DNA of 64,000 bases from Escherichia coli 042 (GTDB taxonomy: Bacteria; Pseudomonadota; Gammaproteobacteria; Enterobacterales; Enterobacteriaceae). The stretch is from assembly GCF_000027125.1 (NCBI RefSeq), contig NC_017626.1; one strand, 5' to 3'. Positions 4,620-18,077 of the stretch are shown piece by piece. Position 1 is the stretch's first letter, and each line of letters begins with the position of its first letter. The notes below the pieces were generated by a model. That model saw only the letters and a list, made by a program, of their open reading frames with translations. It was not told the origin of the DNA and ran no database searches. A program made the translations under genes and the position numbers.

Positions 4620-6161
<1,542 letters not shown>

Positions 6162-6229
6162 CCTTAAAGAAGCGTACTTTGCAGTGCTCACACAGATTGT
6201 CTGATGAAAATGAGCAGTAAAACCTCTAC

Positions 6230-6306
<77 letters not shown>

Positions 6307-6348
6307 AATTTGCACGGCAAATTTGAAGAGGTTTTAACTACATGTTAT

Positions 6349-6424
6349 GGGGCTATAGCTCAGCTGGGAGAGCGCCTGCTTTGCACGCAGGAGGTCTGCG
6401 GTTCGATCCCGCATAGCTCCACCA
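6349..6424 (+). tRNA. alaV: tRNA-Ala (TGC) in the 16S-23S spacer
   Basis: GGGGCTATAGCTCAGCTGGGAGAGCGCCTGCTTTGCACGCAGGAGGTCTGCGGTTCGATCCCGCATAGCTCCACCA, 76 nt. Confidence 0.97.
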
Positions 6425-6607
6425 TCTCTGTAGTGATTAAATAAAAAATACTTCAGAGTGTACCTGCAAAGGTTCACTGCGAAGTTTTGCTCTTTAAAAA
6501 TCTGGATCAAGCTGAAAATTGAAACACTGAACAACGAAAGTTGTTCGTGAGTCTCTCAAATTTTCGCAACACGATGATGAATCGAAAGAAACATCTTCGG
6601 GTTGTGA

Positions 6608-9513
<2,906 letters not shown>

Positions 9514-9606
9514 ACAACGCCGAAGATGTTTTGGCGGATAGAGAGAAGATTTTCAGCCTGATACAGATTAAATCAGAACGCAGAAGCGGTCTGATAAAAC
9601 AGAATT

Positions 9607-9726
9607 TGCCTGGCGGCCTTAGCGCGGTGGTCCCACCTGACCCCATGCCGAACTCAGAAGTGAAACGCCGTAGCGCCGATGGTAGTGTGGGGTCTCCCCA
9701 TGCGAGAGTAGGGAACTGCCAGGCAT
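9607..9726 (+). rRNA. rrfH: 5S ribosomal RNA (rrfH)
   Basis: TGCCTGGCGGCCTTAGCGCGGTGGTCCCACCTGACCCCATGCCGAACTCAGAAGTGAAACGCCGTAGCGCC...GGAACTGCCAGGCAT, 120 nt. Confidence 0.97.
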
Positions 9727-9778
9727 CAAATTAAGCAGTAAGCCGGTCATAAAACCGGTGGTTGTAAAAGAATTCGGT

Positions 9779-9855
9779 GGAGCGGTAGTTCAGTCGGTTA
9801 GAATACCTGCCTGTCACGCAGGGGGTCGCGGGTTCGAGTCCCGTCCGTTCCGCCA
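9779..9855 (+). tRNA. aspU: tRNA-Asp (GTC), distal tRNA of the rrnH operon
   Basis: GGAGCGGTAGTTCAGTCGGTTAGAATACCTGCCTGTCACGCAGGGGGTCGCGGGTTCGAGTCCCGTCCGTTCCGCCA, 77 nt. Confidence 0.97.
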
Positions 9856-15867: not shown

Positions 15868-16608
15868 GTGAAACGGAAGGTTGTGATGAAACCGGCAAGA
15901 GTCCCTCAAACTGTCGTGGCTCCTGATTGCTGGGGCGATTTGCCCTGGGGAGAGCTTTATCGCAAGGCGCTGGAGCGCCAGCTCAACCCGTGGTTCACTA
16001 AAATGTATGGTTTTCATCTGCTTAAGATTGGCAATTTAAGCGCAGAAATCAATTGCGAAGCGTGCGCGGTTTCTCATCAAGTGAATGTTTCTGCGCAAGG
16101 AATGCCCGTCCAGGTGCAGGCGGACCCACTTCATCTTCCTTTTGCCGATAAATCCGTTGATGTTTGTCTACTGGCACATACATTGCCGTGGTGCACCGAT
16201 CCGCATCGTTTATTGCGTGAAGCCGATCGGGTATTGATTGATGATGGCTGGCTGGTGATTAGTGGCTTCAATCCCATCAGTTTAATGGGATTACGCAAAC
16301 TTGTGCCGGTATTGCGAAAAACCTCTCCCTATAACAGCCGGATGTTTACTCTGATGCGGCAGCTGGACTGGCTCTCTTTGTTGAATTTTGAAGTGCTACA
16401 CGCCAGCCGTTTCCACGTTCTCCCGTGGAACAAACACGGTGGAAAATTATTAAATGCGCATATTCCTGCGCTTGGTTGCTTACAACTTATTGTCGCCCGG
16501 AAACGGACTATTCCTTTAACGCTAAATCCGATGAAACAGAGTAAAAACAAGCCACGAATTCGCCAGGCGGTTGGAGCCACCCGGCAATGTCGTAAACCAC
16601 AGGCTTAA
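15868..16608 (+). CDS. yafS: Putative SAM-dependent methyltransferase YafS
   Basis: 246 aa ORF divergent from gloB; the true start is probably the internal Met at 15886. Confidence 0.8.
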
Positions 16609-17072
16609 ACTTCGACTTGATAGCCCGTATCTTCCAGTGTGGGATTCATCGCTGCGGCACGAGCCAGTTCATCGCAACGTTCGTTTTCTGGATGACCGGC
16701 ATGGCCTTTAACCCATTCCCATTTGATTTGATGCTGCCCCAGCGCAGCATCAAGACGTTGCCAGAGATCGACATTTTTTACTGGTTTTTTGTCTGCTGTT
16801 TTCCAGCCACGTTTTTTCCAGTTATGGATCCACTGGGTGATACCCTGGCGGACATACTGGCTGTCGGTACTCAAAATGACTTCGCAATGTTCTTTTAACG
16901 CCTCCAGCGCGACAATAGCGGCCATCAACTCCATACGGTTGTTGGTGGTGCGGGTGTAGCCTGCGCTAAAGGTTTTCTCGCGTCCGCGATAGCGTAAAAT
17001 AGCGCCGTAACCCCCAGGTCCTGGATTACCCAGACACGAACCGTCGGTGAAAATTTCTACCTGTTTAAGCAT
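16605..17072 (-). CDS. rnhA: Ribonuclease HI
   Basis: The ORF track gives 179 aa, but the recognised RNase HI sequence begins at the internal [23 protein letters not shown] (155 aa), so the start is placed at 17072. Confidence 0.93.
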
Positions 17073-17136
17073 CTCTGGTAGACTTCCTGTAATTGAATCG
17101 AACTGTAAAACGACAAGTCTGACATAAATGACCGCT

Positions 17137-17868
17137 ATGAGCACTGCAATTACACGCCAGATCGTTCTCGATACCGAAACTACCGGTATGAACCAGATTG
17201 GTGCGCACTATGAAGGCCACAAGATCATTGAGATTGGTGCCGTTGAAGTGGTGAACCGTCGCCTGACGGGCAATAACTTCCATGTTTATCTCAAACCCGA
17301 GCGGCTGGTGGATCCGGAAGCCTTTGGCGTACATGGTATTGCCGATGAGTTTTTGCTCGATAAGCCCACGTTTGCCGAGGTAGCCGATGAGTTCATGAAC
17401 TATATCCGCGGCGCGGAGCTGGTGATCCATAACGCAGCGTTCGATATCGGCTTTATGGACTACGAGTTTTCGTTGCTTAAGCGCGATATTCCGAAGACCA
17501 ATACCTTCTGTAAGGTCACCGATAGCCTTGCGGTGGCGAGGAAAATGTTTCCCGGTAAGCGCAACAGCCTCGATGCGTTATGTGCCCGCTACGAAATAGA
17601 TAACAGTAAACGAACGCTGCACGGGGCATTACTCGATGCCCAGATCCTTGCGGAAGTTTATCTGGCGATGACCGGTGGTCAAACGTCGATGGCTTTTGCG
17701 ATGGAAGGAGAGACACAACAGCAACAAGGTGAAGCAACAATTCAGCGCATTGTGCGTCAGGCAAGTAAGTTACGCGTTGTTTTTGCGACAGATGAAGAGC
17801 TTGCGGCACATGAAGCCCGTCTCGATCTGGTGCAGAAAAAGGGCGGAAGCTGCCTCTGGCGGGCATAA
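17137..17868 (+). CDS. dnaQ: DNA polymerase III epsilon subunit (3'-5' proofreading exonuclease)
   Basis: 243 aa from [19 protein letters not shown] (exo I motif); divergent from rnhA with a 64 bp intergenic region. Confidence 0.93.
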
Positions 17869-18000
17869 ATACCTGTAAAAGGCGCTAAAAATAGCGACTT
17901 GGGCGATTTTTGCAGCAAACGATTCAAAAGATGAGAAAAACCGTTGACGAAGGGTGAGGCAATCCGTAATATTCGCCTCGTTCCCAACGGAACACAACGC

Positions 18001-18077
18001 GGAGCGGTAGTTCAGTCGGTTAGAATACCTGCCTGTCACGCAGGGGGTCGCGGGTTCGAGTCCCGTCCGTTCCGCCA
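18001..18077 (+). tRNA. aspV: tRNA-Asp (GTC), a known genomic-island integration hotspot
   Basis: Identical 77 nt sequence to the rrnH-distal tRNA-Asp; followed by a hairpin and T-run terminator around 18106..18137. Confidence 0.97.

Follow-up and report, generated by a model that had tools for sequence, protein, structure and literature searches.

The rnhA-dnaQ control region of Escherichia coli 042: a known divergent locus whose promoters very probably interleave

The window analysed here, a 64,000-nucleotide stretch of contig NC_017626.1 of Escherichia coli 042, carries the genes for RNase HI and DNA polymerase III epsilon head to head, as annotated in RefSeq:

16605 to 17072, minus strand: rnhA coding sequence, RNase HI, 155 aa, start ATG at 17072-17070 (RefSeq and PDB)
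17137 to 17868, plus strand: dnaQ coding sequence, DNA polymerase III epsilon, 243 aa (RefSeq and PDB)
17073 to 17136, no strand: 64-bp gap between the rnhA and dnaQ start codons (sequence, RefSeq)

Direct reading places CAT, the minus-strand rnhA ATG, at 17070-17072 and the dnaQ ATG at 17137-17139. The same genes with the same spacing are annotated in E. coli K-12 MG1655 (rnhA 235535-236002, minus; dnaQ 236067-236798, plus; head to head with 64 bp between them), whose coordinates convert to those of the window by subtracting 218930. Between 16980 and 17230, only 3 of 251 positions differ between the window and K-12, all of them in coding sequence; the 64-bp gap is identical, and nothing in the control region differs. 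The identical E. coli genome Ecol_316 is likewise annotated in RefSeq with divergent rnhA and dnaQ exactly 64 bp apart, and a megablast search with 16600-17900 found the locus once each in 5,424 of 5,426 complete E. coli genomes, some of the matches being 100% identical. Both products match PDB chains (RNase HI, E = 1.8e-107; epsilon, E = 7.5e-157). The 64-bp head-to-head spacing is thereby confirmed as real, and chance is not at issue, because the gap is the distance between two annotated genes. The gene identities, the divergent orientation and the spacing proposed in an earlier, sequence-only reading of this DNA are all borne out by RefSeq and by the identity with K-12. The control region of this strain is an already known locus, described in 1983-85, and we agree with that reading in regarding the feature as ordinary, since 'overlap of the promoter regions' already stands in the title of Maki, Horiuchi and Sekiguchi (1983, PNAS 80:7137).

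At its far end, rnhA overlaps yafS (15886-16608, plus strand) tail to tail by 4 bp (16605-17072 being the rnhA interval). Upstream, at about 4621-9854 of the window, lies a complete rRNA operon (16S, tRNA-Ile, tRNA-Ala, 23S, 5S, tRNA-Asp), followed by dkgB, yafC, yafD, a methyltransferase gene, mltD and gloB. On the other side, tRNA-Asp (aspV, 18001-18077) and a yafT-like gene are followed from about 19529 by a type VI secretion cluster (hcp, a VasL-domain gene, tssM, tssA, vasI, tssH and icmH/dotU), which occupies the place of yafT and its usual neighbours in K-12 and therefore constitutes an island beside a tRNA gene. Epsilon of this strain differs from that of K-12 at three residues (D55E, D88N and I224L; codons 17299-17301, 17398-17400 and 17806-17808), none of them catalytic; the PDB-alignment differences around epsilon residues 183-186 belong to the engineered 5FKU chain and not to this strain.

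To place the gap in its family context, one genome per species was scanned, yielding 80 Enterobacteriaceae loci (epsilon 85-99% identity), 79 of them scorable for both genes. The divergent layout is present in all 79 scorable loci, with gaps of 52-66 bp. In the resulting alignment of 81 sequences, the gap measures 64 bp in 45 (a count that takes in the window and two annotated E. coli loci), 63 bp in 12, 52 bp in 10, 65 bp in six, 62 bp in five, 66 bp in two and 53 bp in one. The description of the arrangement as conserved, made in the earlier reading, thus holds within the Enterobacteriaceae (79/79) but does not extend to a universal rule: the gloB-yafS-rnhA-dnaQ neighbourhood is widespread in Proteobacteria, yet rnhA and dnaQ run in the same direction in Pseudomonas aeruginosa, so the head-to-head layout is a lineage feature. 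The coupling of RNase HI with the proofreading subunit epsilon that the earlier reading attached to the arrangement would be a putative function. A dnaQ copy in Citrobacter sp. Awk 4 (L058, 1-2309) has its first ~10 codons and upstream region replaced; two functionally uncharacterised ORFs stand upstream where rnhA would be, and this copy may represent a rearranged or additional dnaQ locus at the end of a contig.

The 64-bp figure depends on the accepted start codons, because the program-made ORFs are longer for both genes, running from GTG 17144 for rnhA (179 aa) and from ATG 17128 for dnaQ (246 aa). For rnhA, the RNase HI chains in PDB are 155 aa long, start with MLKQ and align to residues 25-179 of the long ORF. 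Gap lengths of 52, 53 and 62-66 bp among the 79 scorable loci mean that the gap region cannot be coding, and 17 loci have an in-frame stop, unaccompanied by a start codon, at most 12 codons upstream of the rnhA ATG. We rejected the long ORF from GTG 17144 on the strength of these indels that are not multiples of three, the in-frame stops and the 155-aa PDB chains. The correction of the rnhA start to ATG 17072-17070, which had been taken to be confirmed by the compact layout and checkable against mapped start sites, is sound; it is the comparative and structural evidence, and not the start sites, that establishes it.

Transcription of dnaQ could be assessed from K-12 start-site maps, which were carried over to the window because the sequence is identical to that of K-12. 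The elements that bear on it are as follows:

17091 (K-12 236021), plus strand: main dnaQ start, 46-nt leader (Kim 2012, Cappable-seq, Cho 2014)
17076 to 17084, plus strand: extended -10 TGgTAGACT of the main dnaQ promoter, classical P2, 6 nt upstream of 17091 (81/81 sequences)
17046 to 17072, minus strand: rnhA codons 1-9, holding the P2 -35 and spacer (TCTACC, 17056-17061) and the -10 GAAAAT at 17049-17054 (alignment, scan)
17061 (K-12 235991), plus strand: minor dnaQ-direction start inside rnhA (Cappable-seq; scan match from GAAAAT)
16973 to 17007, plus strand: classical P1 inside rnhA, with -35 TTTTCT at 16973-16978, -10 TAAAAT at 16995-17000 and start at 17007 (Cappable-seq, promoter list, scan)
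17083 to 17088, minus strand: Shine-Dalgarno-like AGGAAG, putatively of rnhA, 10 nt upstream of its ATG (sequence; within the invariant block 17073-17090)

Three independent genome-wide datasets agree on the dnaQ start at 17091 (K-12 236021, plus strand). Kim et al. (2012) recorded it with 122 reads and a 46-nt leader, and found a leader of likewise 46 nt for dnaQ in Klebsiella pneumoniae, whose upstream sequence is almost identical. Cappable-seq, for which we considered the plus-strand rows, gives it a score of 405, and Cho et al. (2014) report it with 203 reads in a sigma-70 binding region, together with a second start at 236027 (17097; plus strand, 35 reads) in a sigma-70 binding region. 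The weaker plus-strand Cappable-seq sites lie at 235991 (17061; score 24), a minor dnaQ-direction start inside rnhA, at 235937 (17007; score 21), also inside rnhA, and at 236046 (17116; score 5). A promoter list quoted in a preprint places dnaQP1 at 235934 and dnaQP2 at 236017, which are the 17007 and 17091 sites to within 3-4 nt. The supplements of Mendoza-Vargas 2009, of SMRT-Cappable-seq and of tetracycline ribosome profiling contain no rnhA or dnaQ entries, and neither gene is named in the main text of the papers on retapamulin and tetracycline profiling.

A position-weight promoter scan of both strands, with a bonus for an extended -10, ranked four plus-strand candidates highest: TAAAAT at 16995-17000 (predicted start 17007), TGgTAGACT at 17076-17084 (predicted start 17091), TAACTT at 17274-17279 (predicted start near 17286, inside dnaQ, with no mapped counterpart) and GAAAAT at 17049-17054 (predicted start 17061). 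The first, second and fourth of these coincide exactly with the three plus-strand sites that are mapped most strongly. A strict consensus promoter scan of 16850-17350 returned no promoter, and a terminator-like match at 16946-16968, inside rnhA, was at chance level. Together, these data show that most dnaQ transcription starts at 17091, driven by a sigma-70 promoter with an extended -10. Published starts, promoter list and scan also agree on two dnaQ promoters, the upstream one inside rnhA, as in the known E. coli locus; RNA from P1 runs antisense to the rnhA coding sequence over its first 66 nt.

Only about 3-4 nt separate the extended -10 of P2 from the rnhA start codon, and this element lies over the ribosome-binding region of rnhA, at AGGAAG 17083-17088 of the opposite strand, while the upstream half of P2 falls within rnhA codons 1-9. 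The statement in the sequence-only reading that both genes are transcribed from the 64-bp region therefore needs to be divided: the overlap of promoters stands, but the 64 bp do not suffice on their own, since the upstream half of P2 and two weaker dnaQ starts are inside rnhA. This geometry bears directly on the simplest reading of the gene map, in which back-to-back promoters confined to the gap would fire apart and produce no overlapping transcripts, a reading with which the lack of a divergent excludon call for rnhA-dnaQ in MG1655 RNA-seq is in keeping. With a dnaQ start at 17091, the -35 and spacer fall within rnhA codons, and rnhA harbours further dnaQ starts; the 18 nt left for an rnhA leader (17073-17090) cannot hold both AGGAAG 17083-17088 and a start. 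In addition, the title of Nomura, Aiba and Ishihama (1985, J Biol Chem 260:7122) speaks of 'convergent overlapping dnaQ-rnh genes'. We consider separate back-to-back promoters extremely unlikely.

The rnhA side is less sharply defined, and three candidate starts were weighed:

17116 to 17124, minus strand: mirror element TGtCAGACT, candidate rnhA extended -10 with a predicted start near 17109 (81/81 sequences; part of a dyad arm; putative promoter role)
17102 to 17107, minus strand: TACAGT, alternative candidate rnhA -10 with a predicted start near 17095 (scan)
17187 (K-12 236117), minus strand: reported rnhA start inside dnaQ codon 17 (Cho 2014; 20 reads, sigma-70 region)

An rnhA start further left than 17091 would leave a leader of at most 18 nt and cut AGGAAG, which means that the start must lie to the right of that position. 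The one rnhA start retrieved from genome-wide data, 17187 from Cho et al. (2014), is inside dnaQ and would produce a 115-nt leader running antisense to the beginning of dnaQ; Kim et al. (2012) list for rnhA just one site with 2 reads, far inside dnaQ. The minus-strand scan produced no well-scoring rnhA candidate. Its best -10 hexamer was TACAGT at 17102-17107, and TGTAAT at 17154-17149 gave a predicted start near 17142. The hexamer of the mirror element, CAGACT, has C at -12 and is accompanied by no -35. With candidate starts near 17095, near 17109 and at 17187, an overlap of the polymerase footprint with the dnaQ promoters is forced by geometry. The assertion that the two promoters must overlap is accordingly upheld by the mapped dnaQ start at 17091 together with an rnhA start to its right.

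Conservation across the 81 sequences divides the region into zones, the first of which is an invariant block at 17044-17090. The remaining features are:

17091 to 17112, no strand: variable spacer, the sole part of the gap that tolerates indels (81-sequence alignment)
17113 to 17151, plus strand: conserved block beginning AC AAGTCTGACATAAATGAC and running to dnaQ codon 5, nearly invariant (81-sequence alignment)
17128 to 17130, plus strand: in-frame ATG 9 nt upstream of the accepted dnaQ start (alignment of 81 sequences)

A 12-bp deletion within 17091-17112 produces the 52-bp gap of Kosakonia, Trabulsiella and Yokenella. Codons 1-9 of rnhA are almost frozen at synonymous sites, with a single codon in all sequences at positions 4, 5, 7, 8 and 9; codons 10-24 use 2-5 codons each, and synonymous conservation is raised again over codons 25-37, which overlie the upstream dnaQ promoter P1. 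On the other side, synonymous changes are nearly absent from dnaQ codons 2-5, and Ser2 is AGC in every sequence. TGnTAGACT and its mirror TGnCAGACT are both present in 81/81 sequences, 19-33 nt apart, and the intervening stretch alone varies.

The conservation of 17113-17151 fits a dnaQ translation initiation region at least as well as it fits an rnhA promoter. The block spans about -24 to +15 relative to ATG 17137, which corresponds to the footprint of an initiating ribosome, and it includes the frozen codons 2-5. No strong Shine-Dalgarno sequence for dnaQ is present in it. The dnaQ leader folds no better than shuffled sequences (z = 0.57), nor does the 148-nt rnhA leader from 17187 (z = -0.97), and an Rfam search at a permissive threshold matched tRNA alone; we rejected an RNA-structure explanation of the conserved blocks because both leaders fold like their shuffles. 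It is quite possible, although short of likely, that 17113-17151 is purely a dnaQ translation initiation region, with neither Shine-Dalgarno nor structure, an idea to which the unstructured dnaQ leader lends itself, and that the rnhA promoter lies elsewhere, at TACAGT or upstream of 17187. TACAGT does have the best minus-strand -10 score and 17187 is the only experimentally reported rnhA start retrieved; yet TACAGT sits in the non-conserved spacer and is deleted in the genera with a 52-bp gap, while 17187 has only 20 reads and no good -10 before it, its putative -10 CAATCT being variable across species at position -11. The mirror element, by comparison, repeats the pattern of the validated P2 element (TGnYAGACTT), without variation in 81/81 sequences, and roles in translation initiation and in the rnhA promoter are not mutually exclusive. 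We therefore tentatively prefer the invariant mirror element TGtCAGACT (17116-17124, minus strand) as the rnhA core promoter, with a start near 17109 and a 19-nt overlap, giving this assignment a little under an even chance. Translation of dnaQ is probably initiated in the block 17113-17151, which overlaps the candidate rnhA promoter and probably serves both roles.

The mirror element forms part of a 16-nt hyphenated dyad, 75% complementary, with arms at 17070-17085 and 17115-17130. Each arm holds TGnYAGACTT, and the outer ends are the rnhA ATG and the dnaQ ATG 17128. Four copies of the 10-mer TGNYAGACTT occur in the window against 0.59 expected; by a rough estimate, extension of the dyad beyond its 6-nt seed is not statistically unusual for the region. 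A dimeric regulator that co-controls rnhA and dnaQ through these arms would account for their complementarity and for the phylogenetic invariance of both. The spacer between them, however, varies by up to 14 nt, with an arm distance of 19-33 nt among genera, unlike one fixed dimer site; the left arm is already accounted for by the mapped -10 and the start codon; and the modest statistics of the extension also count against such a site, which we regard as very unlikely. By eye, the gap holds no convincing match to a LexA or DnaA box. Separately, a perfect 8-nt inverted repeat, TGTAATTG and CAATTACA at 17088-17095 and 17147-17154, places one arm where dnaQ transcription starts and its partner within dnaQ codons 4-6; it may be due to chance.

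The outer end of the right arm raises the matter of the dnaQ start codon. ATG 17128 is kept in 81/81 Enterobacteriaceae sequences and the accepted ATG 17137 in 80/81, the exception being a Pluralibacter metagenome-assembled genome (L078) with ATT at that position. An in-frame TAA at 17125-17127 directly precedes ATG 17128 and is kept in 79/81. Translation of dnaQ wholly or partly from ATG 17128 would give an epsilon of 246 aa and a true gap of 55 bp and would make the start correction wrong or incomplete. ATG 17128 is the first ATG of the dnaQ ORF, the 6 nt separating it from ATG 17137 show neither indel nor stop in the 81 sequences, and, within the dyad, it is the mirror counterpart of the rnhA start codon, both sharing the spacing AAGUCU-N7-AUG. 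The 243-aa epsilon is nevertheless the form used by RefSeq curation and by every PDB construct, the PDB chains starting with MSTAITRQ; in the second codon between the two ATGs the middle base is the most variable (Ala, Asp or Val), as in a spacer and not in constrained protein; conservation reaches +15 of ATG 17137; and the ATT at the accepted position comes from a single metagenome-assembled genome. A good Shine-Dalgarno is absent at both ATGs. The mapped dnaQ starts all lie upstream of both 17128 and 17137, and for this reason they cannot choose between them: they are compatible with the corrected dnaQ start, as the sequence-only reading expected, but equally with its rival. Initiation at ATG 17128 appears improbable to us, and we retain 17137 as the dnaQ start, with ATG 17128 as a codon that may compete with it. 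A bolder proposal is that the TGnYAGACTT mirror pair, each copy beside an opposite-strand ATG, constitutes a symmetric module, in which face-to-face extended -10 promoters would interfere reciprocally and ATG 17128 would truly serve as a dnaQ start, alternative or ancestral, so that annotation and structural work would have overlooked an epsilon isoform of 246 aa; we hold this to be similarly doubtful.

How the region relates to other promoter arrangements can be judged first against K-12 itself, whose classical description has two dnaQ promoters (P1 inside rnh and P2 at the gap) and one opposing rnh promoter. In ilvY-ilvC and argE-argCBH, two other divergent E. coli pairs, the promoters likewise share one short segment; a dedicated regulator (IlvY, ArgR) is bound there, whereas rnhA-dnaQ has no evident regulator site and a variable arm spacing. 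In bidirectional promoters arising from -10 symmetry, which Warman et al. are said to have described in 2021 (Nat Microbiol), the -10 hexamers of the two strands reportedly overlap, with divergent starts separated by about 18 bp. The present region resembles that class in having two opposite-strand sigma-70 promoters, the rnhA one putative, within tens of base pairs and in near-palindromic sequence. It differs in that its elements are 19-33 nt apart and face each other, with transcripts that would converge and overlap; in the window, the hexamers at 17079-17084 (plus) and 17116-17121 (minus) are 31 nt apart and facing, and we rejected assignment to this class. There is also some likeness to an excludon, in which neighbouring genes on opposite strands have 5' or 3' untranslated regions that overlap: the RNA from dnaQ P1 is antisense to the rnhA start region, and an rnhA start at 17187 would oppose the region where dnaQ begins. 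The table of divergent excludons in MG1655 does not list rnhA-dnaQ, so a long 5' overlap, if there is one, does not stand out in RNA-seq, and transcripts from the main promoters probably overlap over a short length. The pair formed at the opposite end of rnhA, yafS-rnhA, is listed as a convergent excludon in MG1655.

Taken as a whole, the locus is very likely the classical E. coli rnhA-dnaQ divergent pair with interleaved promoters that spill into the neighbouring coding sequences. Two start codons 64 bp apart leave too little room for separate promoters and leaders, and the promoters therefore interleave and reach into the coding sequences. Because the rnhA start is placed to the right of 17091, the two transcription units would lie face to face, and their 5' ends would overlap by 5, 19 or 97 nt for rnhA starts near 17095, near 17109 or at 17187, respectively. 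RNA polymerase footprints at the two promoters would overlap as well, and, judging from this geometry, occupancy of one promoter would be expected to hinder the other through occlusion or interference. The weaker dnaQ-direction starts at 17061 and 17007 yield RNA antisense to the 5' end of rnhA.

As a check, this is bookkeeping: the rnhA and dnaQ coordinates of the window agree with the accepted annotation, and the control region behaves in accordance with the descriptions of the 1980s and with modern start-site maps. The near-absence of synonymous variation in rnhA codons 1-9 and in dnaQ codons 2-5 is due to regulatory signals that these codons carry, serving either the neighbouring gene or translation. 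This is relevant to any recoding or deletion of rnhA or dnaQ: loss of the first rnhA codons removes the upstream half of P2, and an rnhA deletion that takes these codons also removes both weaker upstream dnaQ promoters.
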